A DNA stretch of 64,000 bases from the IMG/VR virus record IMGVR_UViG_2974545452_000001, positions 4,622 to 68,621 of that record. One strand, given 5' to 3'. The notes below the pieces were generated by a model, which was not told the DNA's origin, did not search any database, and saw only the letters and a list, made by a program, of their open reading frames with translations. Numbering within the stretch: the stretch's first letter is position 1; each line of letters begins with the position of its first letter. The translations under genes were made by a program, and so were the position numbers. The stretch comes from a virus. Lineage: Duplodnaviria; Caudoviricetes. Shown piece by piece: positions 37,430 through 56,662 of this stretch.

Positions 37430-37639
37430 TTAATAAGCGCGACGTGCTGAGACGTGTTCGGCAGCGGCCATGCTTCGGAACGTATCAATCCAGCGGAGGG
37501 TTCGAACGGTTCCATTATCGAACTTGATATTGACTTCTCCACGAATTGTTGAGTTGCCGTCGCATACGCCGCGCCTGATCGTTCCCTTTTCGCTCACGTG
37601 ATAAACAACTTCGCCATCAGCAAAACGATCGATTTCCAT
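37430..37639 (-). CDS. hypothetical protein (69 aa)
   Basis: Coupled ORF, small beta-barrel-like. Confidence 0.6.
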   Translation of the reverse strand: MEIDRFADGEVVYHVSEKGTIRRGVCDGNSTIRGEVNIKFDNGTVRTLRWIDTFRSMAAAEHVSARRAY

Positions 37640-38220
37640 TACTCGGCCAGCCCCAGCTCGCGGCAGATGTCAGAGTAGCGAGCGTCAGTGGACTTGACGA
37701 ACACGCCGTTGAACATCACGCCTTTGCGGTCTTTGATTTCGTCATAGGCCACTTCAACGCAGTCGGCGATGTCATATTGGAAGTAGTTGGCCAGGTCGGC
37801 CAGGTGGTGGAAGGAATACGCCAGCAGTGGCCCGACCGCTTTGTTATCGCGCTTCAGAACGGCATCGGCCATCTTGCCGATAGTTGATGATGCTTGATAG
37901 AACTCATAGCCACAGATTCGCGGCAGCTGCTCATATTCCTGAATCAAGTCGGCAAGCAAATATCCTTCTTGCTCTGCAATGATGGTGAGAACGACGACGG
38001 TGTCACCAATGCCGTCGATAAGGTCGCTGTGCGCCTTCTCCAACGCTGCGTCATCACCTTCCGTCATGGAAATGTGCGCGCCTTGAGCGATTGCCAGGCC
38101 GGTTTCGCCAAACTCGCTGAACAACTTCAGAGACTGCGCGCCGGAATTGGAGCCATCGATCAGATTACGAGCCTTTGCCCAATCCAGGATGTTCGATAAA
38201 GTATTAGTTAATTTTGACAT
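37639..38220 (-). CDS. mazG: MazG-like nucleotide pyrophosphatase
   Basis: WAKARNL, KLFSEFGE, DGIGDTVVVL, AYDEIKDRKG. Confidence 0.85.
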   Translation of the reverse strand: MSKLTNTLSNILDWAKARNLIDGSNSGAQSLKLFSEFGETGLAIAQGAHISMTEGDDAALEKAHSDLIDGIGDTVVVLTIIAEQEGYLLADLIQEYEQLPRICGYEFYQASSTIGKMADAVLKRDNKAVGPLLAYSFHHLADLANYFQYDIADCVEVAYDEIKDRKGVMFNGVFVKSTDARYSDICRELGLAE

Positions 38221-38875: not shown

Positions 38876-39748
38876 TTAGAACTGCTCGGCGTCTTGTGGA
38901 GTGGACGATGCTTGTTCGGTGTGAGCCGCGTCTGCCTGTTTGTTGTAATCCACGTTGACCGCGCCGGCAGCAATGTCTTTGTAGAATGCCACCGCTTCGT
39001 TGAAGATTTCTTTGTCAGAAACCAGACCTTCCAGATCAAAGCGAGCGCCAGACCAGCTGCCTTTGTCGTTGGACTGACCGATGGTGGTCAGACGAACGGT
39101 GTTGGCGAAGGTCGGCGGAGTACGCAGGTTGCCAGCGGCGTCTTTGATCTTTTTCTGCTGCAGCGCAGTGTTCAGCATCTTGGATGCTTTGATTTGGCTG
39201 GAAGACAGAGAGATCAGGGCGCGGCCGTATTCGCCGGTGTCCGGGTCGATTACCAGGACGTAGTGGGCGCGGGTATCGGCGAAATAGTCGTTTTTCTTCT
39301 CGTTCACAGTTCCGTCCGGGTTAGGAACGTACATGCGACCGTCAACGACTTTGATCTTGGTTTCGTCGGCCAACATATCGTTAATCGCTTCAACCGCGTG
39401 CTCGCCTTTGAAACCGCCTTCAGCAGATTCGCGACCGCCCCACTGGATGTAGGAGCGTTTGTAGTAGCACGGAACGATCAAAACGCCGGATTTGCCGTCG
39501 TACAGCTTCTGGGTAACGGTATTGAACAGCATACCGGCCTTGGCGCCTTCGATGTACTTCGGATCATCTGGATCAACCAGCGGCGACATCTTCTGCAGGA
39601 TTTGGATGAACGGAATAGCAAACGATTCGCTATCCATCCCCTCAAAGCCCGCGCCGAACAGAGAGTTGTCCATAAACGCCGGTGCGACTTGGCCGCCAGC
39701 GACCACAGCGACTTCTTTGTTTTCGGATGCAGAATCTTTCTTAGACAT
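38876..39748 (-). CDS. putative ssDNA-binding/recombination protein
   Basis: IPFIQILQKMSP, aromatic-rich beta strands, acidic tail ending in F; replication context. Confidence 0.5.
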   Translation of the reverse strand: MSKKDSASENKEVAVVAGGQVAPAFMDNSLFGAGFEGMDSESFAIPFIQILQKMSPLVDPDDPKYIEGAKAGMLFNTVTQKLYDGKSGVLIVPCYYKRSYIQWGGRESAEGGFKGEHAVEAINDMLADETKIKVVDGRMYVPNPDGTVNEKKNDYFADTRAHYVLVIDPDTGEYGRALISLSSSQIKASKMLNTALQQKKIKDAAGNLRTPPTFANTVRLTTIGQSNDKGSWSGARFDLEGLVSDKEIFNEAVAFYKDIAAGAVNVDYNKQADAAHTEQASSTPQDAEQF

Positions 39749-39804: not shown

Positions 39805-40383
39805 TTACTTAACTTTAGCCGATTTCTTGGCTTTTGGCACGGTAATTTTCGCTTCTTTAAATTCGTGGATTGCGAAACACGCTGGCAGAGAATCACCGGC
39901 CTCAACGCGCTCTTTAGCCCATGACTTCAATGTCGCTGGGTGAATTGCGTCTTCAACACCTGCGATGATGTCGATTTCCGCCAGCGCTTCAACAGCGGCC
40001 TTGGCGCTCTCATCCTCGCCTTTGCCGAATTCGACAGAGATTTTGGATTTGATCAGGCCGTCATAATCGTGCTCACGCAGCCACGCGAAAGCTTCAGGCT
40101 TGTCGGCGGCTTTGATTGCACAGTTCACCTTGCCTTCGACCGAAACCAACATGCCATCTTCGGTGCGAACTTCAGACATGCCGATTTCAGCCATCAGCTC
40201 TGGGATTTCTTCACGCAGAACTTTCTTCATGGCCTCTTCAGCCTTGGCCGATTCGGTCGCGTGATAATCAAAGTCGTCTTTCAAATCAGCGGCTTTCTGT
40301 ACCAAATTTGAAAGACGTACAAGGTTGTCTTCTGCAGGCGCTTGATCAGCCAACGCCCCAAAAAAATCGATAGTCTCTTTCAC
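39805..40383 (-). CDS. conserved replication-module coiled-coil protein
   Basis: IPELMAEIG, AFAWLREH, IHPATLKSW. Confidence 0.6.
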   Translation of the reverse strand: MKETIDFFGALADQAPAEDNLVRLSNLVQKAADLKDDFDYHATESAKAEEAMKKVLREEIPELMAEIGMSEVRTEDGMLVSVEGKVNCAIKAADKPEAFAWLREHDYDGLIKSKISVEFGKGEDESAKAAVEALAEIDIIAGVEDAIHPATLKSWAKERVEAGDSLPACFAIHEFKEAKITVPKAKKSAKVK

Positions 40384-41954: not shown

Positions 41955-42352
41955 ATACTCTCCAAATATGAGATGACATTCTCTTTGCCAATGGCAAGTG
42001 AGGCGTCTATTATACCCTGTTTATTGCAAGCCTCCAAATCGGCTTTCGGGTCTAGTAGATACCACTCACGACTTGCTACCCTTAGCAACACAAAGCCTTT
42101 TCCCTTCCAGCTAATATGGGAGCGCAAGAAGGATAATTGGCCCTTTTCAAAATGCCCCTTTAGTGGCGCGGTCGTCTCCCGCTTAGGCCATGCCTTCAGC
42201 GCTTTAAGCTCAGTCCAAAATGTCGTGCCGCGCCTGTTGGTTGCGTTGATATCAGGGGTCGCCTCTCCAAGCATATTCTCAATGCGAGTGGCTTTGATGC
42301 GCCCCTCCAGGGCGCTTTTGAGTGAGTTCCATGCAAGCTGCTCTTCAGTCAT
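41951..42352 (-). CDS. PD-(D/E)xK nuclease/resolvase-like protein
   Basis: RIEN...TPDI...WTELK; start moved to ATG 42352 (ATGACTGA coupling). Confidence 0.7.
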   Translation of the reverse strand: MTEEQLAWNSLKSALEGRIKATRIENMLGEATPDINATNRRGTTFWTELKALKAWPKRETTAPLKGHFEKGQLSFLRSHISWKGKGFVLLRVASREWYLLDPKADLEACNKQGIIDASLAIGKENVISYLESI

Positions 42353-45224
42353 TTGCCGCTGCCTCCGATTCGGCTTCGATTTCAGCCAGCGTCTTTTCAG
42401 CTTGCGGCTTAATATCGATGCGCTTGATTCGGTCAATATTGAACATCCCTAGTCCAGGGATTTTATACCCACGAACTAAGAACCAAGCGCCCTTTGGAGA
42501 GCCTTCAAATATGCGCTTCCCAACTTGGTCATAAAGCTTAGTTGGAATCCTGAATCGCATCGGGCTATCGGTTGAATCGTCCACAAGGAACAAATCAACA
42601 AACTGATGTTGCCCTTTCCATCCAGCCGGTTTCCCTTTGGCAACGCGCTTTTTAACCCTGATTGCTTCCAGCTCTGACGCCAGCACCTTTTTAACCAGCT
42701 TACCGATAATAAGTCCATTGTGTCTGTCTGGAACGTCAGCCATGTTGATTATCGGATGCCCGGTCGTTACGCCAATCAATGTTGGGTCATTGTAGTAGTG
42801 CCCCCACTTGGTGTGCGCCTCTCTCAGGTCGGCGAATTGAACTTCTGCCTTGGCCAGCTTCTCACGCATCTTATCGGTCAGCGTTCCGTTCTCACGCGCG
42901 GCGATATACTTGTTGGCGGTTATCAATCCAAATCCTTTGGCATTCATAATGCCGCCGATTAGTTTACCGTCAGCAACAGTCCAGTTGGCTTGACTAAGCT
43001 CTGTATCAATTGGAACATAGTCGATGCCTTCCGATACCAACTCACGCAATATGGCGATTGTCTGTTCATCGTCCTTGGCGGCGCGGAGACAGGCCGCAGC
43101 GAATTGCAGCGGGTAATAGTATTTGAGCCAGATGGTGTAATAGGTGATGATTGCATAGGCCACTGAGTGAGACTTGTTGAAGCCCCACGAACCAAATGTC
43201 ACCATTTCCTGCCAAATCTTCTTGGCTTGTTCCTCTGGCACGCCTTGAGAGGTCGCCCCGGCTACAAAGTCCTCACCCATCTGGTTGAAGTATTCTTCAC
43301 CCTTACGGCCTGACATCGCCTTACGAACGGCAGAAGTTTTGACCCAGTCAAACAGACCGATTTCCTTTACCACGGACATGATCTGCTCTTGATAAAGGAA
43401 CACGCCATAAGTATCTTTGAGATATTTCTCCAGCTGCGGCACGTCATAGGTGACAGGCTCTTCACCCTTTGCACGCGCTATGTATTTTTGAGCCATACCA
43501 GACGCAAGTGGGCCGGGTCGGGCAAGTGCCGTAAGGTTGTCAATCTTGCTAAAGCGGTCAATGTGAACGGAACGGGTAACTGACCGAACGGCATCACCCT
43601 CGAACTGGAATATGCCGCTGACTTTGTCGTCATTAAGTATCGAGAATACAGCTTCATCGTCAAATTTGAGGCTGTATAACTCTTCTGCCGTGATAACTCC
43701 AGTATCACCGATAATGCCCAGCGTTCTGAGTCCAAGAGCGTCAATTTTGAGCAGGTTAAGGTATTCTGAATCAGGCTTGTCAATATGCGGGACGCCATCG
43801 GCCCCGACAGTGCAATAGTCCGTAATTGGTTCGTTACATACCAAGATGCCCGCTGCATGTACTCCGGTGTGAGAGGGATGCAGCTCAAGGTCGCCCATGC
43901 ATGCTGCAGCAGCAGGATACTTGGCGACAAATTCTTGCCCTGGCCCCGTGGTTGAAAATGTATCCTGCAGCCCCTTTCCATAACGCGCATCCCCTGATGA
44001 GTATTCGATTAGTGAGTTTTTAACAGCATCCGTTTGCCAAGCGTCGATGCTGAATTTCTTACCCACCTCAGCCATAACAGACGCGGCCTTCAGCGTGTTG
44101 ATATTACCAAGCTTAGACACGTTGTCAACGCCGTATTTTTCTTGGAGGTATTCGAACACCAGGTGGCGCTTCGTATCCTCAAAGTCAATATCGATGTCGG
44201 GCAAGTCGGCGCGACTGATGTCGATAAAACGCTGGAACAGGAGGTGGAACGGCAGCGGATCAACCTCAGTTATTCCGAGGCAATAACAAACCAACGAACC
44301 TGCTGACGAGCCGCGCGCCGGGCCGACCAGCATTTTTGTTTTGGCGAATCGAACCAAGTCGGCAACCACAAGGAAATATGAGTCAAAGTCTTTCAGCTGA
44401 ATCTGGTGAATCTCTTCAACGAATCGGTCTTCATATTCCTGAGTCCATTCCTTGATGTGCCCCATCTTGACGCGATACTCTTGCCCCTGCCGCGCCAACG
44501 CAACCATGTCGCCAGCCAGGTGGATGATTGGTGCCTTTTGTAGCGTAACACCCTTCAGGCACTCCGCGACGGCATACGTGTTGTCAATCGCCTTTTTCCA
44601 CTCATGCTTTTCGAATAAACCGCCCAACTCGGATTCCAAATCCTCCAACGTGCAGATTCGACGAATGCCTGCGCGGTCACGGATTCGATATGCATAAGCG
44701 AAGTTCTTGTGCTCGTCTCCGGGCATATCGTTGTAGGACGTTATCACGACGGGCTTACCGGTACGGCGCGCGGCGTCTATCTGGTGTGCAGCCAACAAGC
44801 GTGACGACGGGTTAACGTCGATATAGTCGTACTGCTCCGGGGCCAGGATGCCAACGGCAGCGCCAGCAAATCTAACGACGCCTTCAAGCGCGCCGAACTC
44901 TTCAGGCGTTAAGAAACCTTGCTTTGCAGCCTTGGAAGTTGCATTGAAGAATTTCTTACTGTCCTTGGCAAGAATCCACGCGACGCGATAGAAGTCACTC
45001 ATCAAATCGCCGCTCTTAATTTTAACCTCCATACCGAATATGGCGGACAGACCTGCCTTCTCCATATCCTTGGCCCAGCGGACAGCGCCCCAGGTATTGT
45101 CATCGACGATTGCCGCTGATTGACAGCCCAGCTCTTTAAGCTTGGCGACAACTTCCGGGGTGCGGCCATAAACGCGCTTAAACGTGTATCCTGTTCTTAC
45201 TCGCAGCTGCGGAAACCCTTCCAT
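42345..45224 (-). CDS. dnaE: DNA polymerase III alpha-like (family C) polymerase
   Basis: PHP-like N-terminus, GPARGSSAGSLVCY, PDIDIDF, HAAG, KIDALGL, GFNKSHSVAY. Confidence 0.95.
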   Translation of the reverse strand: MEGFPQLRVRTGYTFKRVYGRTPEVVAKLKELGCQSAAIVDDNTWGAVRWAKDMEKAGLSAIFGMEVKIKSGDLMSDFYRVAWILAKDSKKFFNATSKAAKQGFLTPEEFGALEGVVRFAGAAVGILAPEQYDYIDVNPSSRLLAAHQIDAARRTGKPVVITSYNDMPGDEHKNFAYAYRIRDRAGIRRICTLEDLESELGGLFEKHEWKKAIDNTYAVAECLKGVTLQKAPIIHLAGDMVALARQGQEYRVKMGHIKEWTQEYEDRFVEEIHQIQLKDFDSYFLVVADLVRFAKTKMLVGPARGSSAGSLVCYCLGITEVDPLPFHLLFQRFIDISRADLPDIDIDFEDTKRHLVFEYLQEKYGVDNVSKLGNINTLKAASVMAEVGKKFSIDAWQTDAVKNSLIEYSSGDARYGKGLQDTFSTTGPGQEFVAKYPAAAACMGDLELHPSHTGVHAAGILVCNEPITDYCTVGADGVPHIDKPDSEYLNLLKIDALGLRTLGIIGDTGVITAEELYSLKFDDEAVFSILNDDKVSGIFQFEGDAVRSVTRSVHIDRFSKIDNLTALARPGPLASGMAQKYIARAKGEEPVTYDVPQLEKYLKDTYGVFLYQEQIMSVVKEIGLFDWVKTSAVRKAMSGRKGEEYFNQMGEDFVAGATSQGVPEEQAKKIWQEMVTFGSWGFNKSHSVAYAIITYYTIWLKYYYPLQFAAACLRAAKDDEQTIAILRELVSEGIDYVPIDTELSQANWTVADGKLIGGIMNAKGFGLITANKYIAARENGTLTDKMREKLAKAEVQFADLREAHTKWGHYYNDPTLIGVTTGHPIINMADVPDRHNGLIIGKLVKKVLASELEAIRVKKRVAKGKPAGWKGQHQFVDLFLVDDSTDSPMRFRIPTKLYDQVGKRIFEGSPKGAWFLVRGYKIPGLGMFNIDRIKRIDIKPQAEKTLAEIEAESEAAAND

Positions 45225-45787
45225 TATCGACCTCCAAATGCTTTATAGATGCCCATGTCAATGCAGACTTCATGCAACATCATGATGTCGTCCATCGCCC
45301 GGTGTTTCTGTTGATATTCTCCGATGCGCTCACTGTACAAGTCCTGAAGCTTACGGTCATAGCCGTACAGCGGAGAAGTCTGCTCAACGGTACAGCAACG
45401 AACGATTGGATAATTGATGTCGCCCAAAGTCATTCCGAGCCGCGCCATGGCGTATTGCATGATTTGCGTATCGAACGAAAGGTTGTGTGCGACGACCACC
45501 TGCGCTTGACCGAAGAATTTTGACAGCTGCGGAACAAACGCCGAGAATGGCGGCTTGCTGTCCAGGTCAGCGTTTGTCAGGCCGGTTATCTTCGTGATTA
45601 TTTCGTCAATGGCTTGACCGGGGTTGCAAATGAATTCCAGCTGATCGATGATCTCAATACCATCGGTGATAATTCCAGCGAATTCTATTGGCTTTGCCTG
45701 AATGGATAAATCGGCCTGTGGGTGTTTATTCAGCCCTGTTGTTTCCGTATCGATTACCGAAAACAAACGCGGCATAATAACGCTCAT
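45224..45787 (-). CDS. DEDDh 3'-5' exonuclease (epsilon-like)
   Basis: IDTETTG, AHNLSFD, HRAMDD; GGAGA RBS before ATG 45787. Confidence 0.9.
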   Translation of the reverse strand: MSVIMPRLFSVIDTETTGLNKHPQADLSIQAKPIEFAGIITDGIEIIDQLEFICNPGQAIDEIITKITGLTNADLDSKPPFSAFVPQLSKFFGQAQVVVAHNLSFDTQIMQYAMARLGMTLGDINYPIVRCCTVEQTSPLYGYDRKLQDLYSERIGEYQQKHRAMDDIMMLHEVCIDMGIYKAFGGR

Positions 45788-45809
45788 ACTTGTTCTCCAC
45801 GTTATAGTA

Positions 45810-45837
45810 AAAAGGGCGACCAAATGGACGCCCTTTT
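45810..45837. terminator. bidirectional-type hairpin terminator
   Basis: AAAAGGGCG-10nt-CGCCCTTTT. Confidence 0.6.
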
Positions 45838-45860: not shown

Positions 45861-46391
45861 TTAGATGTCTTTGCGAACGATAAATTTCAAATCGACACCG
45901 ATGATGCCGCGCGTATCAAAGATCACGTAATTGTAACGTCTGCTATCCTTGATTGCCGGGTTAGTATGGCTTTCGGTGTTTACTTCCTGCGCCACCTGGA
46001 TGTCTTCGGCGGCAAAGAAGGCGCGCCACTGCACCAGCTCTTCAGCGCTAACGTGCATGCCAAGGTGAGACACTTGGTTGTTGTGAGCGTCGTCTTGACC
46101 AACGTTCTCGCTGATCCAGTTATCGCCACGCCGGTAGTCCAGAATTTCCAGCTCCAGCGGCTTCGATGCACCTTCATCCGCGCCAGTACCGGCCTGATAG
46201 TTGAAGCGCAAATCTGCTTCATTCACTTCTTCGTGGTGCGATCCCTTGTATGGATCATCTTTGAAGACGAAGCCACGAGCCACCACGTGATCGTGGAACC
46301 ACTCGGTCAGGCCGATTTTCGCCAGGAAATCTTGAGCGCGCTGCGCGTCAGGAATGGACAGTGCAATTTGTTGGATTTGAAACTTGAGCAT
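45861..46391 (-). CDS. VOC/glyoxalase superfamily (epimerase-like) protein
   Basis: IQQIAL, LELEIL, SHLGMHV, YVIFDTRGIIGVDLKFI follow the paired beta-alpha-beta-beta-beta pattern. Confidence 0.75.
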   Translation of the reverse strand: MLKFQIQQIALSIPDAQRAQDFLAKIGLTEWFHDHVVARGFVFKDDPYKGSHHEEVNEADLRFNYQAGTGADEGASKPLELEILDYRRGDNWISENVGQDDAHNNQVSHLGMHVSAEELVQWRAFFAAEDIQVAQEVNTESHTNPAIKDSRRYNYVIFDTRGIIGVDLKFIVRKDI

Positions 46392-46585
46392 TATTTACCC
46401 TTAGCAGTTGCTTTTTGGATCATTGTACGTTCCACACCTTCGATGACAACTTCTTGAATGTCACCTTGGGTGGAGTTATTAACAACGTGGCAATTGAACA
46501 TGGTCATATCAACCATGTTGCCGTGATCGTCTTCAATTTGGACTTGAAGAACTTCGCCGACCTTACGATATACCAGTCTTGCCAT
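46391..46585 (-). CDS. hypothetical protein (64 aa)
   Basis: ATG 46585 directly after the SDR stop; TAATG-coupled to the VOC gene. Confidence 0.6.
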   Translation of the reverse strand: MARLVYRKVGEVLQVQIEDDHGNMVDMTMFNCHVVNNSTQGDIQEVVIEGVERTMIQKATAKGK

Positions 46586-46586
46586 A

Positions 46587-47261
46587 TTATTTACCGAATG
46601 GGATGTCAGTACCAGACATGAACTTCCAGTTGCCGGTATCCAACAGGTGGACGATGTAATCCGCGATGGCTTGCGGCTCGGTTTCCAGGCCGTGCATGAG
46701 CGCCTTTTTCTGGTACTCCGCTGCAAATTCAGGCGTCCAGCCGCGCGTCTTACAGACGTTATCTTCAATCTGCTTCGACATACCGGTGCCACGCAGCTTG
46801 TTCGGGCTGATGGAGAACACGGTGATGCCATAACGCGGCGTCAGTTCGTGAGCCATTTGCTTGGTGATCATGAGCGCAGCAGCTTTGGAGGCGTTGTAAG
46901 CCAGGCTGGACGTCATAGGGATATGCGCGGCGTTGGACACGATGTTCAAAACGAAGCCTTTCGACGCGATCAGGTTTGGTAGATATGCCTGAGTCATATA
47001 CACCATGCTGAATGCGTTTACATCCATAACATGTCGCAGATCAAGCCGGTTTATTTTTTCAAACCACTCGTTGTTGTTGATGCCAGCACAGTTGATGATG
47101 CCGTCGATGCGCTGATTAAAGCCTAGCAGCGTTGCATTCGGATTGGTCACATCCTGTCCTGATTGCAGATCAAAACCGATGACGTCATAGCCCTTTTCGC
47201 ACAGCGTATCGGCGATTGCCTTACCAAGGCCAGATGCAGAACCAGTAACAATAACACGCAT
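46587..47261 (-). CDS. classical short-chain dehydrogenase/reductase
   Basis: TGSASGLG, NCAG, catalytic Ser (NIVS) and YNASK. Confidence 0.92.
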   Translation of the reverse strand: MRVIVTGSASGLGKAIADTLCEKGYDVIGFDLQSGQDVTNPNATLLGFNQRIDGIINCAGINNNEWFEKINRLDLRHVMDVNAFSMVYMTQAYLPNLIASKGFVLNIVSNAAHIPMTSSLAYNASKAAALMITKQMAHELTPRYGITVFSISPNKLRGTGMSKQIEDNVCKTRGWTPEFAAEYQKKALMHGLETEPQAIADYIVHLLDTGNWKFMSGTDIPFGK

Positions 47262-47331
47262 TTCACTTTCCTTTTCTGTACTTCGTTGAAATTAGATATA
47301 TTATCGGCCATCCTTGGCCTGCAGTCAACCG

Positions 47332-48756
47332 TTACCTGGTTTTATCTTCACTTTCGCCGGTCTGGATGTTGTGGTTGAGAACCCCAATTGCTTCCAACAT
47401 CGCGCCGTACACCGTCAGATCATGAAGGGAGTCTTCATGCTTCAGGCCGCTGTTGGTGAAGCGGGTAAGTTTAACAATCAACAGCTCAAACAGGTGGTAG
47501 AACTTGTGATCAGCGACCGTCCGCAGTGTTACGCCGTCAGGGAATAGAACGGCCATGACTTCGCCGACCTTCGCTGCGTTGTCCTTATAGACGGCATTAC
47601 GCTCACGGAATGTATCTGCCATTTCGGCCAGTACGTCCGCCGCCGTCTTGGGCTTCGGCTCGGCCTTGAGCGGAGCCGTGACGCTGCGGCAATTGAACCC
47701 TGCTGTGCGCGGATCAACGAGTTGGCCGTGAACTGGACATCCACGACTATACTTCAGGCCGTGAGAAGCGCCGCCGGACGTGATATTGAAATACGTTGTT
47801 GGACAGGTGCATTTTACATTACGAACAGGCTCGCCACACAGCACGCTTTCTGGGATGTTCCAAAGTCCAGAAAGGAATGTTGAATTGTCACGGATGATCT
47901 TAGTTAAGTCATCACCTTTCGCCGCGTCGAATCCGATGAACGGCTCTTGCTTGCCGATGTTGATTTTCAAACACTGCTTTTCGTCTTCTTTGACGCGCTC
48001 AATCGCGCGTTTCAGGTTATAGACTTCAGCGCCTGGGAAGTCTGACATCTGCCAAGGGCGTCTATGCACCTTTCCTTCGATTGGATGACTGGAAAACGAC
48101 CAAAGCCAAGCCATTGCCGATTCAGAGGCTCTCACCTCCAAATCCTCTTTGTATTTCTCCCACCAATTGACGAGGCACGCCAATGCCAGATTACCAAATG
48201 GCAATCCCTTGAATGCGCGCACAGAATCCAACATGGATTGCGTGTCCTCAGAATCGATGATTGAATTCCCTGTGAGAACCATGTGGCGACAACGCGCGCT
48301 GCTGCCAAAGAATTTGGCATATGCATTAACAACATCAGGCCGATCATCAAATGTTAATAAATCACAACCTTCGATACCGTGCTCAACGAGAAAATTGTGC
48401 AACTTCTTGGTCTTGAGTTCATCCGACGTCACGCCGAAATCCTCTTTATCACGCATCAACGCGCCGATAATAGAGTTTGATGGCAATTCCAAAGAATCGA
48501 ATTGGAGCAACGTTTGGTTTTCATAAGCGTGCGGCCTTGCGGTATTGATAAGGATTTTCCAACCTTTCCTTACCAAGAACCTGACAAGCGACGCGCCGAA
48601 TGCAAATGGACGGTCATCCACCATCGCTTCGTGATAGCGCTTGTAGCGCTTTTTCAGCGGCAAAGACATATCGATCAGATGTTGGCGATGACGGTCATCG
48701 ATGATGCAGTTGTCCATGTCGAACACAGCGATTTTACAGCCTTTAAGATTTTGCAT
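47332..48756 (-). CDS. HAD phosphatase fused via an insert to an all-alpha NTP-pyrophosphatase-like (DUF6378-like) domain
   Basis: FDMDNC, NTARP, K, FDDR; C-terminal RERNAVY...KLTRF...DSLHDLTVY. Confidence 0.7.
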   Translation of the reverse strand: MQNLKGCKIAVFDMDNCIIDDRHRQHLIDMSLPLKKRYKRYHEAMVDDRPFAFGASLVRFLVRKGWKILINTARPHAYENQTLLQFDSLELPSNSIIGALMRDKEDFGVTSDELKTKKLHNFLVEHGIEGCDLLTFDDRPDVVNAYAKFFGSSARCRHMVLTGNSIIDSEDTQSMLDSVRAFKGLPFGNLALACLVNWWEKYKEDLEVRASESAMAWLWSFSSHPIEGKVHRRPWQMSDFPGAEVYNLKRAIERVKEDEKQCLKINIGKQEPFIGFDAAKGDDLTKIIRDNSTFLSGLWNIPESVLCGEPVRNVKCTCPTTYFNITSGGASHGLKYSRGCPVHGQLVDPRTAGFNCRSVTAPLKAEPKPKTAADVLAEMADTFRERNAVYKDNAAKVGEVMAVLFPDGVTLRTVADHKFYHLFELLIVKLTRFTNSGLKHEDSLHDLTVYGAMLEAIGVLNHNIQTGESEDKTR

Positions 48757-48760
48757 TTAC

Positions 48761-49534
48761 TTATCCTTTTGAGGTGCCGTCTTTGGCTACAGGGTTGTTG
48801 GTGATAGGATTAGCGCTCCAGAATTGAATGCGCAATTCCTCTTGTTCTTTAGTGGTATCCATCCAAGGGCGATACCAAGGGCAATGGGCCTTACCGTGGC
48901 GAGGAAACGCACACTTACCTACGCCGATGCAAGACGGCTGTAAGAGAGGATTTGCCCAGGGATGTACTTCGAGCACCGCCGCGACCATGGCACGGAACAC
49001 GTGTTGGTATTCGCCCTGAGTCCGGGTGCAAAGGCGATTCTTTGCCATCTCAGAAAGCGTCCGCAAGTTGAACTTAGCGGTGATGTGTGTCTGCATATTG
49101 GAAGGCAGAATGGAGCGTGCATCTTGTATTTCCGCCCCAGCCGCGCGGAGTTCCTGATACAAGGCGTCGATGGTCGCCACAGAATCATACCAAAGGTGAT
49201 CAAGTTCAATTTTCCCACCTTTGGAGGCGTCGAACGCCATAGGGATTATAGCGTCGAACGCCGAGGATTCTTGGGCGCGGCTGGTGCGCTCCTGATAAGC
49301 CCCGGTGCGCGTCCGAACCATCTGATGCGTCATATTCTTTGACACTTCGGTGATATCAAAGATATAGTCAACGAAATCAAACGGCGATTTGATCGTGTCA
49401 AGCATGTACAGCCAGTGCTCTTGCTTTTCAGCATCGGTCATTTCTTCAACCGGCTTGCCTTTCATACGGGTGTTTTTCGTCTCCAGAAGTAAGTCCAGAG
49501 CGTCTTGGGTGTAGCGTATTAATTTGACTTGCAT
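48761..49534 (-). CDS. thyX: ThyX-fold flavoprotein with non-canonical active site
   Basis: SPFD, HQMVRTRTGAYQERTSR, ARSILPSNMQT, NLRT, NRLCTRTQGEY. Confidence 0.8.
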   Translation of the reverse strand: MQVKLIRYTQDALDLLLETKNTRMKGKPVEEMTDAEKQEHWLYMLDTIKSPFDFVDYIFDITEVSKNMTHQMVRTRTGAYQERTSRAQESSAFDAIIPMAFDASKGGKIELDHLWYDSVATIDALYQELRAAGAEIQDARSILPSNMQTHITAKFNLRTLSEMAKNRLCTRTQGEYQHVFRAMVAAVLEVHPWANPLLQPSCIGVGKCAFPRHGKAHCPWYRPWMDTTKEQEELRIQFWSANPITNNPVAKDGTSKG

Positions 49535-49539
49535 TTCAC

Positions 49540-49893
49540 CTACTCCAATTCAATGGTGATGCGCATGACACCGGAGCCGTTGATGCTTCGGTCTTGTTTG
49601 CCGCCGACTAATGCCAGAAGCTCCTGAAGCTTTGCCAGGTTCATATAACCAAGGTTGTTGATCTTCGCCGTGTCTTTGCGGCCGACCTCTTCCATGACGA
49701 TGAACTGTGATGCATTCACCGAACTAGGAATGGCAATGATGACGTAGCCTTCAAGGTGCTCTTTATTGATAGGCAACAAAAGCTTACTGAGTAATTCCAT
49801 TCCAACTCTCCTATGGTTGATAAGGTGATTATGGCGCTTAATAGCGCCATCGTCAATAGTTGAGTGGATTATATTATAATTAGATACACGCAT
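49540..49893 (-). CDS. hypothetical protein (117 aa)
   Basis: TGATG-coupled to the flavoprotein gene. Confidence 0.6.
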   Translation of the reverse strand: MRVSNYNIIHSTIDDGAIKRHNHLINHRRVGMELLSKLLLPINKEHLEGYVIIAIPSSVNASQFIVMEEVGRKDTAKINNLGYMNLAKLQELLALVGGKQDRSINGSGVMRITIELE

Positions 49894-50849
49894 CAGAGTT
49901 TGAGTATTTTCTCACGCCCGTAGTTCGATGCATTGATCAGCCGCTCAATCTTCGGAAGGTCATCGGCAACGTCGTCCAACAGGATATTGCGCCAAGTCGC
50001 GAACCGGCCCAGAGAGAATATGTTGTACTTGTTGGTCAGTTGATAGAGGATAGACTCTCTGGACGCGGCATTCAAGTCCATAATCTTGCCATAGGCTTGG
50101 TCAACAATCTCACCGGCTTCAAAGTCAATGTCCTTACCGGACAACCCAAATGCCGCCGCCGCAGATACTGCGTTGTTGTGAGTTTGGAAGGAGTTCATCG
50201 ACTCAACGATCAGGATGTCGCCGGTGATGGATGCTCGGAAAAGGCTGCTGTGTTCATCCGGGAAGTAAATGGTTTGGTACACATCACAAGGCGTCTTAAC
50301 CTTATAACGCGCAACGATGATTGGAGAGCGCTTGAAGCCGGTCATCAGATCACAGTCTTCAATCCCCAACAGCTTCAAGATGACAGGGAGCGGAGCGGTG
50401 TTGATCCAAGATACGTCGCTGCGCTTTACTTCGCTTACGCTCTTGAAATTTCGGCCCTCAATGGCTTGATTGAACCACAACCGGCCTTCACTCTCCAGGC
50501 GGTCACAAAGCACTTCATATAGGTTGTCCGGCGCGATATATCGGTCACACTCTTCCAACTTCATGATGCTGCGGCCAGAGATAGCGCCGGTGACTTTTGC
50601 CGCGTACATGTTAGCCAGAGCGATTGGGCACTTTCCTTGGAAAGTCTTTCCTTGATAGTGGACTTCTTTGTACACGCGAACCTTACGGAATGGAACGCCA
50701 GTGATGTTGGAAACGTCGTCGGAGCGGAAACGAAGAAGGGCCTTGTGCATTTGCTTGCGTGGGCCAGCTTCGAATACATGCGCGCCTTTGAAGTAATGCG
50801 CGGCAATGAGTCCGGCCAATCCGCCGCCGATAATTTTAATGCTGTTCAT
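49893..50849 (-). CDS. FAD-dependent oxidoreductase, UDP-galactopyranose-mutase/HemY-like
   Basis: IIGGGLAGL...VFEA Rossmann fold; INTAPL; IYFPD...LFRAS; C-terminal FSLGRFATWRNILLDDV. Confidence 0.75.
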   Translation of the reverse strand: MNSIKIIGGGLAGLIAAHYFKGAHVFEAGPRKQMHKALLRFRSDDVSNITGVPFRKVRVYKEVHYQGKTFQGKCPIALANMYAAKVTGAISGRSIMKLEECDRYIAPDNLYEVLCDRLESEGRLWFNQAIEGRNFKSVSEVKRSDVSWINTAPLPVILKLLGIEDCDLMTGFKRSPIIVARYKVKTPCDVYQTIYFPDEHSSLFRASITGDILIVESMNSFQTHNNAVSAAAAFGLSGKDIDFEAGEIVDQAYGKIMDLNAASRESILYQLTNKYNIFSLGRFATWRNILLDDVADDLPKIERLINASNYGREKILKL

Positions 50850-50907
50850 TCGAGATCACCGAAATGGTATGGATAATAGGCAAGTCAATTATAGCTGAAT
50901 TTCAGGC

Positions 50908-50938
50908 AAAAAGAAAGGCCCGGTGGGAGACGGGCCTT
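50908..50938 (-). terminator. rho-independent terminator
   Basis: AAGGCCCG-8nt-CGGGCCTT with a minus-strand U-tract. Confidence 0.75.
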
Positions 50939-51035
50939 AAATGCTACACTAAACAACATCCGAATCGTTCACTACGTCACCAGCTGCATCTGGAGAGTCA
51001 GACAATAATAATCGATTCGGGTTGCCCGGTCAACC

Positions 51036-55718: not shown

Positions 55719-56165
55719 ATGAGCGAAGAATCGAATTGGAACAGATTCCAGCAGGAATCAGCCAAGCGTCGCATGAAGTACGACAAGAACCTACCGGCGA
55801 ATTGTGAAGGTTGCATGTCCGGTGAGCGCTGGCTTGAGTCTGAGATGCTGACGTTGGTAAGCCTATTAAAAGATGGCAACAACATCTTAGCCACCTTTTG
55901 CTTCACGCTTAATCGACCCAAGTTCGGTATAATATCAAAGTTGCAAAAGATGGGATTGGCCATCATCGATCATCAAAGAGGCCGTGGCCATATGTATTAT
56001 AAGGCCCACGCAACGGATTATATGTCGCGAAAAAGATTCAATGATCTGCCAGAGAAAGTCCAAGCGTTGTTGATTGATCGCGGCTGGCAGGTTGGAAGAT
56101 ATGTCGTTGCGCCTAGATGGTGGCGTGACGCAATTATTAACGATGATGTTAGGAGACACCAATGA
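55719..56165 (+). CDS. hypothetical protein with HTH/Myb-like segment
   Basis: GAGGA RBS; RWLESEMLTL...NRPKFGIISKLQKMGL. Confidence 0.65.
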   Translation: MSEESNWNRFQQESAKRRMKYDKNLPANCEGCMSGERWLESEMLTLVSLLKDGNNILATFCFTLNRPKFGIISKLQKMGLAIIDHQRGRGHMYYKAHATDYMSRKRFNDLPEKVQALLIDRGWQVGRYVVAPRWWRDAIINDDVRRHQ

Positions 56166-56662
56166 ACAACGGTTGGGCCACTCAACGGGACACGTATATG
56201 TCAGGAGTTATAAAGGCAACAGAAGCAATCGACTTATTGCTTGAAAGAATCCGCATTCTTAACGTTTTGTCAGAAAGAAACGGAAAGGATATTTATCGCG
56301 TCAGAATCCGAAACGCAAACAAAGCGCTCAATGATGCAAAAGAAGAAAGAGAGCGCCTGCAAAAATTAATCACCGAGGGCGACGCAGTGGCCAGGGCGAA
56401 TGAAGTCATTGCCGATGGCGAGCGTGAGCTTGACCTTTGCCGCCGAATCTCTGAAGCCAAACAGATCACGGTCGCGCCTGGGCTGCTGCCTGAATTCAAT
56501 GCCAGCGAGCTTATGACGCTTGCGGCTGCATTAACGACATTCATGAAGGACATTGAGGTGTTGAACCACGATGACTCTCGTGACATGTATAACGCTCATC
56601 GCCGCAATATTGAGGCGCTCATTAACAAGTTTGAAGACTACGCCAATTCAAGGGGTATGTGA
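56162..56662 (+). CDS. coiled-coil hypothetical protein
   Basis: 166 aa, coupled ORF. Confidence 0.7.
   Translation: MNNGWATQRDTYMSGVIKATEAIDLLLERIRILNVLSERNGKDIYRVRIRNANKALNDAKEERERLQKLITEGDAVARANEVIADGERELDLCRRISEAKQITVAPGLLPEFNASELMTLAAALTTFMKDIEVLNHDDSRDMYNAHRRNIEALINKFEDYANSRGM

Follow-up and report, generated by a model that had tools for sequence, protein, structure and literature searches.

Here we describe a conserved phage flavoenzyme cassette in its Myosmarvirus version, seven tightly packed genes within positions 45861-50849 (minus strand) of a 64,000-nucleotide stretch of Caudoviricetes DNA (henceforth referred to as the window), and we tentatively propose that the cassette takes part in making a modified thymidine, with a side chain derived from a sugar, which the phage would build into its own DNA. 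The seven genes are the best available candidates for the as yet unassigned genes that place sugar-like groups on thymine in related phages. The window covers bases 4622-68621 of a parent virus record of 68,621 bp that is rated complete (IMG/VR IMGVR_UViG_2974545452_000001). The 5-kb stretch shares 96% nucleotide identity with Serratia phage vB_SmaM_Hera and 83-93% with other Myosmarvirus records (MyoSmar, WR01, KKP 3709 and Erwinia phage TropicalSun); judged by these identities, the source genome is that of a Serratia Myosmarvirus of the Hera/MTx-like kind. In the order of transcription, the unit is headed by a flavin adenine dinucleotide (FAD) flavoprotein resembling UDP-galactopyranose mutase (UGM) (318 amino acids (aa); 49893-50849), followed by a small open reading frame (ORF) of 117 aa (49540-49893), a ThyX-like protein of the Thy1 family (257 aa; 48761-49534), a HAD fusion protein (474 aa; 47332-48756), an SDR protein (224 aa; 46587-47261), a small ORF of 64 aa (46391-46585) and a VOC-like protein (176 aa; 45861-46391), all on the minus strand. 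From the VOC-like gene to the flavoprotein gene the ORFs are spaced by gaps of -1, 1, 70, 4, 5 and -1 nt, which confirms the tightly packed seven-gene run (gaps of -1 to 70 nt) described in an earlier reading of the DNA (henceforth referred to as the original prediction), and the GenBank records of Hera and WR01 annotate the same cassette genes.

The proposed role draws on the DNA chemistry of related phages. Yee et al., in a 2025 preprint, reported that DNA of the Pbunavirus F8 resists enzymes with TG in their recognition sites, and that virion DNA of the pbunaviruses F8 and 14-1 contains new nucleosides of 362 and 390 Da, detected by liquid chromatography-mass spectrometry, with about 1/4 of T being replaced (PMC12191111). 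The authors read these nucleosides as tetrose sugar-alcohol and cyclic aldopentose derivatives of thymidine; they assign no genes to the mark, and Pbunavirus is said to be without the genes usually used to predict hypermodification (PMC12191111). Because three of the seven genes, encoding the flavoprotein, the ThyX-like protein and the HAD fusion (henceforth referred to as the core trio), are common to the phages with the 362- and 390-Da thymidine derivatives, a role of the cassette in thymidine modification gains some support. The original prediction had presented the cassette as a candidate undescribed operon that matched no nameable pathway; this has to be narrowed, since for relatives the mark has already been published (PMC12191111). 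The masses of 362.33 and 390.35 fit C14H22N2O9 and C15H22N2O10, respectively, and both formulae are equally compatible with O-linked ethers or glycosides of 5-hydroxymethyldeoxyuridine (5-hmdU) and with C-linked chains, for example 5-(2,3,4,5-tetrahydroxypentyl)-deoxyuridine (dU), which corresponds to the dihydroxypentyluracil nucleoside of Bacillus phage SP-15 (330.3 Da) plus two oxygens. Further support comes from Wifcevirus, a genus that carries the cassette and was found to be considerably resistant to restriction in the BASEL study (PMC11990801). In the genome analysed here, G is the next base after 29% of the Ts.

An altered active site in the ThyX-like protein

The ThyX-like protein (48761-49534) matched the Pfam family Thy1 (PF02511) over profile positions 1-191 of 191, with 98.4 bits (cut-off 24.8; E 5.6e-28), which bears out the predicted ThyX fold. 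It missed the cut-off of the NCBIfam thyX equivalog TIGR02170 (68.5 bits vs 87.9), and a PDB sequence search gave a single match, Thermotoga maritima ThyX (TM0449; E 2.5e-4). Like that canonical enzyme, the protein retains the five arginines that bind and activate deoxyuridine monophosphate (dUMP), R78, R80, R90, R147 and R174, which are R74, R76, R86, R140 and R167 here. Unlike it, the protein has isoleucine in place of H53, threonine in place of H79 (so that the RHR motif becomes RTR), threonine in place of S88 and alanine in place of Y91, and hence reads R-T-R ... T-S-R-A. Among 35 ThyX-like homologues, I48, R74-T75-R76, R86-A87, R140 and R167 are invariant; the altered active site of the original prediction was therefore upheld, with all four replacements being fixed across the clade. 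In ThyX catalysis the carbon is passed from N5 of the reduced flavin to C5 of dUMP, and the exocyclic methylene is then reduced. His53 of the T. maritima enzyme, which aligns to Ile48 here, presumably lies on the folate side of the flavin. Tyr91 and Ser88 are described as strictly conserved and critical in ThyX, Tyr91 being the proposed general acid of carbon transfer, and the Y91A substitution slows the transfer step more than 100-fold (PMC8316439). Judged from its sequence, the ThyX-like protein retains the arginines that bind dUMP, and residues required for the normal methyl transfer are gone. The loss of these two critical residues, the fixation of their replacements in 35 homologues and the missed equivalog cut-off together argue for the proposed role in thymidine modification.

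A second difference from canonical ThyX lies in four cysteines (C169, C202, C208 and C218), all invariant in the 35 homologues; three of the four belong to a C-terminal extension not present in the canonical enzyme, and together they may form a zinc or iron-sulfur site. The ThyX-like proteins of actinophages share an RLC ... C..GSC.F pattern, which the Rhizobium phage homologue lacks. At the active site, the homologue of an Aeromonas phage has kept RHR and yet has Thr/Ala at positions 88/91, and the Rhizobium and actinophage proteins have RNR or RQR together with Val or Phe at position 91. Two properties of ThyX chemistry are relevant to what such an enzyme might do: ThyX can use free formaldehyde as donor, the aldehyde being taken up on N5 of FADH- via an N5 carbinolamine (PMC8316439), and on acid quench its intermediates add water to give hydroxymethyl-dUMP (PMC4913046).

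Searches of the whole 68.6-kb genome gave no match to the ThyA family (PF00303) at E <= 0.1, and none to Tet_JBP (PF12851), GT1 (PF00534) or GT2 (PF00535). Since the genome is without a ThyA-family or Tet_JBP match, the ThyX-like protein is the only detectable uracil C5 enzyme, and the lack of all four families is a further argument in favour of the proposed role. For the families searched (GT1, GT2 and Tet_JBP), the statement of the original prediction that no glycosyltransferase or TET gene is present holds genome-wide. Neither a P-loop 5-hmdU DNA kinase nor an aGPT-Pplase was seen among the proteins scanned with Pfam and PHROGs, those of the cassette included.

The flavoprotein has a UGM-like modelled fold

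No Pfam or NCBIfam family, the UGM models included, matched the flavoprotein (49893-50849), whose sole family is PHROG 4828 (function unknown). A search of 5.8 billion proteins gave 1698 relatives, nearly all of them from phage contigs of 60-72 kb. An N-terminal GxGxxG motif (IIGGGLAG) and a C-terminal GRFATWRN-LLDD motif are invariant in 34 diverse homologues, as are many basic residues (R40, R42, R103, R205, K255, R264, R282 and R287). The AlphaFold (AF2) model of the protein (pLDDT 86.8) had UGMs as its top structural matches (Foldseek E 5.6e-12; VIA-align Z 21.1 over 303 aligned residues), followed by protoporphyrinogen oxidase (PPO; Z 19.5) and amine oxidases (16.7), the lead of UGM over PPO being less than 2 Z units. 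The original prediction of a UGM-like flavoprotein is thus sustained at the level of the fold. With UGM the protein shares, besides the best structural match, both the FAD Rossmann start and the GR-type flavin motif; it differs in being ~150 residues shorter than the matched UGMs, with only 14-18% sequence identity to them, in lacking a Pfam UGM match, in that PPO and amine oxidases score nearly as high, and in that no GT1 or GT2 glycosyltransferase was matched in this genome to use a furanose donor. 'UGM-like' is, on the strength of the model, a fair description of the fold rather than a statement of UGM-family membership.

UGM chemistry proceeds via an N5-flavin sugar adduct (PMC8316439), and in Rhizobium phage RL38J1 a true UGM serves DNA glycosylation (PMC13326640). 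That ThyX accepts a free aldehyde at N5 and that UGM forms an N5-sugar adduct lend support to the proposed role in thymidine modification. Homology of the UGM-like family to the FAD oxidoreductases of actinophages is not shown: the hhalign profiles align over the Rossmann start only (19 columns, probability 85%). A single-sequence hhalign comparison gave 53% over 172 columns, and both families end in a GR[FY]xxW motif.

The HAD fusion, the SDR and VOC-like proteins and the small open reading frames

The HAD fusion (47332-48756) consists of an N-terminal PNKP-type HAD phosphatase, a variable linker (here with a Cys-rich insert) and a conserved C-terminal domain of ~100 residues. The HAD motifs FDMDNC (DxD), NTAR and FDDRPD (DD) are conserved in the alignment, and the family profile matches the PNKP phosphatase domains 4xrp, 5uj0 and 1ltq (Pnkp1 and T4 polynucleotide kinase; E 3.4e-4 to 4.3e-3). 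Homologues exceed the cut-off of Pfam HAD_PNKP (PF25109), the HAD protein of the window itself being without a Pfam match. The C-terminal domain was modelled as four helices (pLDDT 84) and had no significant structural match (lowest Foldseek E 2.0; the highest VIA Z, 6.2, was with unrelated helical proteins); MazG-like chains appeared against it only as noise (Foldseek E 2.7 and 6.9), and a PDB sequence search gave no match over this domain. Its sole family signal is DUF6378, which is sub-threshold here (E 0.13) and near threshold in relatives, and in Microbacterium phage Sparcetus the domain makes up a protein of its own, gp59 (blastp 2e-19). Of the original prediction of a HAD domain fused to an all-alpha pyrophosphatase-like domain, the HAD part is borne out by the DxD motif and the PNKP-profile matches, and the pyrophosphatase-like label is not, the domain being a bundle of four helices that matches DUF6378 weakly. 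The protein therefore resembles the phosphatase domains of T4 polynucleotide kinase/phosphatase and Pnkp1 in its HAD fold, DxD motif, family-profile match and the HAD_PNKP matches of its homologues, and differs from them in having no kinase domain and in being fused instead to a four-helix DUF6378-like domain.

The SDR protein (46587-47261) matched Pfam adh_short with 113.8 bits (cut-off 26.6; E 9e-33) and has the classical motifs TGxxxGxG (VTGSASGLG), NCAG and YxxxK (YNASK) intact, in agreement with the original prediction; no NCBIfam family matched it at cut-off, and its weak matches include pteridine reductase. The VOC-like protein (45861-46391) had no direct Pfam or PDB match, either as a protein or as its small profile, and its assignment in the original prediction is supported indirectly, through relatives: an exhaustive phmmer search gave 269 cluster representatives, several of the relatives, with E 1e-13 to 1e-23, score 37-42 bits against Glyoxalase_4 (cut-off 27), and its feature neighbours in the Atlas are glyoxalase/VOC clusters (0.91-0.93). 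Some relatives carry an N-terminal DUF1599 ('Nucleotide modification associated domain 1', Nmad1); in one of these DUF1599-VOC fusions, P0396 (28.5 bits, cut-off 25), an SDR gene lies directly before the fusion gene on its contig. An hhalign comparison of the DUF1599 region of P0396 with the C-terminal domain of the HAD fusion gave a probability of 0.4%, and we claim no relationship between these two helical domains.

Neither of the two small ORFs had a Pfam, PHROG or NCBIfam match. The 64-aa ORF (46391-46585) is annotated in Hera, WR01 and MyoSmar, and an unrelated metagenomic contig has a 73-aa ORF at the same place between SDR and VOC. The 117-aa ORF (49540-49893) has an uncertain start as judged from the DNA: its start overlaps the flavoprotein stop codon, no Shine-Dalgarno-like sequence precedes it, and Hera has an 86-aa version that begins at an internal Met. 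Since the position of this ORF is variable or empty in phages XcP1, Gekk3-15 and ECML-117, we place it outside the conserved core of the cassette.

Distribution of the cassette across phages

A tBLASTn search found the flavoprotein in 360 phage records and this branch of ThyX in the same groups, which are represented by 292 Pseudomonas records and by phages of Escherichia, Serratia, Xanthomonas, Pantoea, Erwinia, Aeromonas and Rhizobium. The original prediction had suggested that parts of the cassette may be shared with other PB1-like phages; the core trio occurs in all PB1-like genera sampled. In the genomes compared for synteny (Wifcevirus ECML-117, Carpasinavirus XcP1 and Aeromonas phage Gekk3-15) the order Dda helicase, 280-aa protein, flavoprotein, ThyX, HAD fusion, SDR, VOC, exonuclease and polymerase is kept. 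The pbunaviruses JG024, F8 and 14-1 have the trio only, beside the exonuclease and PolIII-alpha genes; SDR and VOC were found in no Pbunavirus record, and SDR is present in the cassettes of Wifcevirus, Carpasinavirus, Aeromonas, Pantoea and actinophages.

Outside the PB1-like phages, the Rhizobium jumbo phage RHph_TM61 (Kleczkowskaviridae) has the trio within 6.4 kb, adjoining dUTPase and ribonucleotide reductase (RNR) genes, with identities of 36%, 38% and 34% (E 3e-59, 3e-41 and 2e-17, respectively). In actinophages of Microbacterium (Sparcetus, Poultress), Gordonia (ParvusTarda) and Mycobacterium (Hawkeye), similar sets (an FAD oxidoreductase, a HAD nucleotidase, an SDR, a VOC and a DUF6378-like protein) lie beside DnaE-type polymerases, with ThyX-like genes close by. 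An 11,131-bp metagenomic contig (sample ERZ27310456) has, ahead of a family-A polymerase gene, genes for a YfbR-like HD nucleotidase, a 410-aa Thy1 protein and an SDR, then an ORF of 73 aa and a VOC fusion of 408 aa, and shares with the window the order ThyX-SDR-small ORF-VOC. Because the set recurs outside PB1-like phages and with different polymerase types, it is not merely the passenger of one replication module. The occurrence of the trio in a phage of another family (RHph_TM61), the recurrence of Thy1/SDR/VOC sets in actinophages and beside a family-A polymerase, and the SDR gene before the DUF1599-VOC fusion all support the proposed role in thymidine modification.

Three further observations were made in these genomes. 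In Sparcetus, a glycosyltransferase gene (gp65; L012 11020-12096) is found immediately downstream of the DnaE genes, and these in turn follow the actinophage set described above. The ERZ27310456 contig also has a nucleoside deoxyribosyltransferase-like gene, and its gene kinds recall those of SP-15 (NDT gp127, SDR gp129 and Thy1 gp130). Over 15 kb compared between F8 and 14-1, no cassette gene was singled out as explaining the difference between their marks (the HAD fusion, for one, shares 81% identity); ORF70 by the primase (L010 12894-14090 vs L011 12997-14301) is 57% identical, its neighbours being 91-99% identical, and since the two phages bear different thymidine marks, ORF70 may deserve attention.

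A possible role in thymidine modification

If the cassette does take part in thymidine modification, the ThyX-like protein would do chemistry at uracil C5 of a deoxynucleotide, in one of two ways: it might release a reactive, hydroxymethyl or otherwise trapped product, or it might couple dUMP to an aldose-type aldehyde via an N5-flavin adduct that replaces the folate methylene. The UGM-like flavoprotein would handle the sugar, the HAD domain would remove phosphate from the side chain or the nucleotide, and SDR and VOC, in the lineages having them, would tailor or trim the chain by reduction or isomerisation. Because SDR and VOC are absent from Pbunavirus, this phage would carry a derivative different from those of F8 and 14-1. 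Any TG context would have to be supplied by a DNA-level step or by selection on the part of the polymerase or exonuclease. A more specific version, which we put forward as a long shot, is that the ThyX-like protein is a new flavin-dependent nucleotide alkylase, not a methyl transferase: N5 of its reduced FAD would capture the aldehyde of an aldose or aldose phosphate, just as formaldehyde can be taken up by ThyX and galactose is by UGM, and pass the whole chain to C5 of dUMP to give a C-linked polyhydroxyalkyl-deoxyuridine, with HAD, SDR, VOC and the UGM-like protein preparing or trimming the chain; 5-(2,3,4,5-tetrahydroxypentyl)-dU has the 362-Da mass of the F8 nucleoside.

Among known systems, that of the pbunaviruses F8 and 14-1 is alike in belonging to the PB1-like group, in having the trio at the same place beside the exonuclease and PolIII-alpha genes and in the sugar-like nature of its side chains, and is unlike in that F8 and 14-1 are without the SDR and VOC genes of this phage. 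In phage phiW-14, T and putrescinyl-T both derive from hydroxymethyluracil already in the DNA. With the 5-hmdU-based routes of M6, ViI, PaMx11, SP10 and phiW-14 (PMC8989533) the cassette would share the likely outcome, partial substitution by a C5-extended thymidine as protection against nucleases, and the general plan, in which an enzyme acts at C5 of the nucleotide and tailoring enzymes come after it, among them a flavoenzyme in PaMx11 (PMC8989533). Those routes differ in their enzymes: a dUMP hydroxymethylase of the ThyA family, a P-loop 5-hmdU DNA kinase, and transferases of the aGPT-Pplase kind, by which amino acids or polyamines are attached, whereas this genome is without a ThyA-family match and the side chains of its relatives are sugar-like. 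A Base-J-like or TET-type route is likewise dissimilar, the genome having neither a Tet_JBP nor a GT1/GT2 match. The DNA of SP-15 contains 5-(4,5-dihydroxypentyl)uracil (PMC5977210), the side chain of which, according to work cited in that source, is labelled from ribose and made as the nucleoside triphosphate (PMC5977210). Here the likeness lies in an SDR gene that abuts a divergent Thy1 gene, a HAD phosphatase nearby and a sugar-derived carbon chain on uracil C5, and these comparable genes in a phage with a modified uracil count in favour of the proposed role; the difference lies in the glycosyltransferases and UDP-sugar enzymes present in SP-15. As SP-15 gp130 and gp131 had no BLAST similarity to the ThyX, flavoprotein or VOC proteins of the window, the parallel is one of gene kind and adjacency only, and no UGM-like or VOC homologue was found in the SP-15 region examined.

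Several points weigh against a part of the cassette in thymidine modification. The link between cassette and mark is so far one of co-occurrence in the same phages. The mark of F8 is reported only in the TG context, which a nucleotide-pool enzyme alone cannot create, and 3/4 of T stays canonical in F8 (PMC12191111). SDR and VOC, being missing from Pbunavirus, are not needed for the marks measured in F8 and 14-1, and within PB1-like phages common descent of the replication module might by itself account for the presence of the cassette. As all dUMP-binding arginines are kept, plain synthesis of deoxythymidine monophosphate (dTMP) is a serious rival. The Aeromonas homologue has RHR kept, and the likeness shown between the actinophage FAD oxidoreductases and the UGM-like family is limited to the Rossmann motif. 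In the Myosmarvirus papers searched we found no restriction-digest, base-composition or DNA-chemistry data. The proposal of the original prediction that an altered ThyX attaches a sugar-derived chain to a pyrimidine nucleotide is partly supported: it gains from the sugar-type thymidines of F8 and 14-1, the clade-fixed changes in ThyX and the lack of another C5 enzyme, and loses by the TG context, which a pool enzyme does not explain, and by the absence of SDR and VOC where the mark was measured.

Some of the same evidence could be accommodated by an ordinary nucleotide-supply module, in which a divergent, working dTMP synthase would boost the thymidine triphosphate (dTTP) pool, the other products would be accessory helpers in nucleotide, cofactor (folate, flavin) or redox metabolism, and the mark would be made by other, unrecognised genes. 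The full-length Thy1 match with R78, R80, R90, R147 and R174 kept, the place of the cassette within the replication module of all PB1-like phages, the dUTPase and RNR genes beside the RHph_TM61 trio and the pteridine reductase among the weak SDR matches would all suit such a module, as would a TG-only mark, which a pool enzyme cannot explain. ThyX yields tetrahydrofolate, not dihydrofolate, so that no reductase partner would be needed for dTMP supply, and neither the loss of Tyr91, Ser88 and the RHR histidine, fixed in 35 homologues, nor the missed thyX equivalog cut-off would be expected of it; moreover, no part in dTMP synthesis is known for flavoproteins of the UGM/PPO type, and relatives of the VOC protein include fusions to a nucleotide-modification-associated domain. 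On balance, we regard dTMP supply as somewhat less likely than a part in thymidine modification, but as a serious rival to it.

Two other explanations seem to us less probable still. The cassette might make or destroy a soluble nucleotide- or sugar-derived metabolite that never enters virion DNA, for example by clearing a competing deoxynucleoside mono- or triphosphate (dNMP or dNTP) pool, acting as counter-defence against nucleotide-based immunity or providing a cofactor. That the HAD domain resembles nucleotide and nucleic-acid phosphatases, that the module also contains a separate MazG-like gene, that HD-type 5'-deoxynucleotidases stand in place of HAD in the related contig and SP-15, and that SDR and VOC are generic small-molecule enzymes would agree with this. 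Against it, the set of enzymes matches no known counter-defence or cofactor pathway, it is tightly linked to a uracil-C5 enzyme and to polymerase genes, and relatives have a DNA mark without assigned genes. It is very unlikely, in our estimate, that the genes are unrelated neighbours held together by descent and operon compaction, with some or none of them in one pathway. The 117-aa ORF, the 64-aa ORF and the insert of the HAD fusion do vary between genera, SDR and VOC are lineage-specific additions, and phage replication modules are often kept as blocks. Against this, the same combinations recur in unrelated phage families with different polymerase types, and the fusions (HAD with a DUF6378-like domain, DUF1599 with VOC) and the repeated SDR-VOC adjacency argue for a shared function.

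A part in thymidine modification, if true, would amount to a route built on ThyX and a UGM-like flavoenzyme rather than on ThyA, a DNA kinase and aGPT-Pplase. Many sequenced phages (coliphages, phages of Serratia, Xanthomonas, Aeromonas and Rhizobium, and possibly actinobacterial phages) would then have unrecognised modified DNA, with consequences for restriction evasion, sequencing and cloning artefacts and the choice of therapy phages. In phage therapy against Pseudomonas, PB1-like phages (Pbunavirus) are among the phages used most; the hypermodification of their DNA is a recent finding, and the modified DNA is a target of host END nucleases. A conserved and concrete gene set makes the origin of the mark directly testable. 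Should the cassette serve dTMP supply only, it would still define a virus-specific branch of ThyX without residues thought to be essential. New in the present analysis are the occurrences outside PB1-like phages, the polymerase-independent context and the Nmad1-VOC fusion, together with published work showing how critical the lost ThyX residues are, and the genome-wide absence of alternative C5 enzymes.

Genomic surroundings of the cassette

The cassette lies directly upstream of two replication genes on the minus strand, as the original prediction had placed it: a DnaQ-like 3'-5' exonuclease gene (45224-45823; RNase_T Pfam E 1.5e-26 and Hera/WR01 annotation) is found 37 nt beyond the VOC-like gene, and is followed by the PolIII-alpha gene (42345-45224; Hera/WR01 annotation). 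The intergenic region 5' of the cassette (50850-51035, minus strand) is 186 nt long, and a consensus scan, giving pattern matches only, found in it a promoter-like site at 51033-51005 (minus; TTGACC, 17 nt, TATTAT), followed by a strong terminator-like hairpin at 50938-50915 (minus; 8 pairs, 6 of them GC, with a T tract after it), both upstream of the flavoprotein gene. Elsewhere in the window, an ORF of 166 aa at 56162-56662 (plus strand), named 'transferase' or 'family 3 glycosyl transferase domain' in GenBank relatives, was considered and set aside, the name being without Pfam, PHROG or Atlas support. Downstream of the helicase genes and in the same module, a separate gene at 37639-38220 (minus) encodes a MazG-like pyrophosphatase (PHROG 1992; E 2.4e-48), the product of which could work on the dNTP pool beside the cassette. 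Between the MazG-like and helicase genes are a Pam3 gp34-like gene (38876-39748, minus; PF23977, E 4e-89) and a Pam3 gp33-like/DUF7307 gene (39805-40383, minus; E 1.7e-37).

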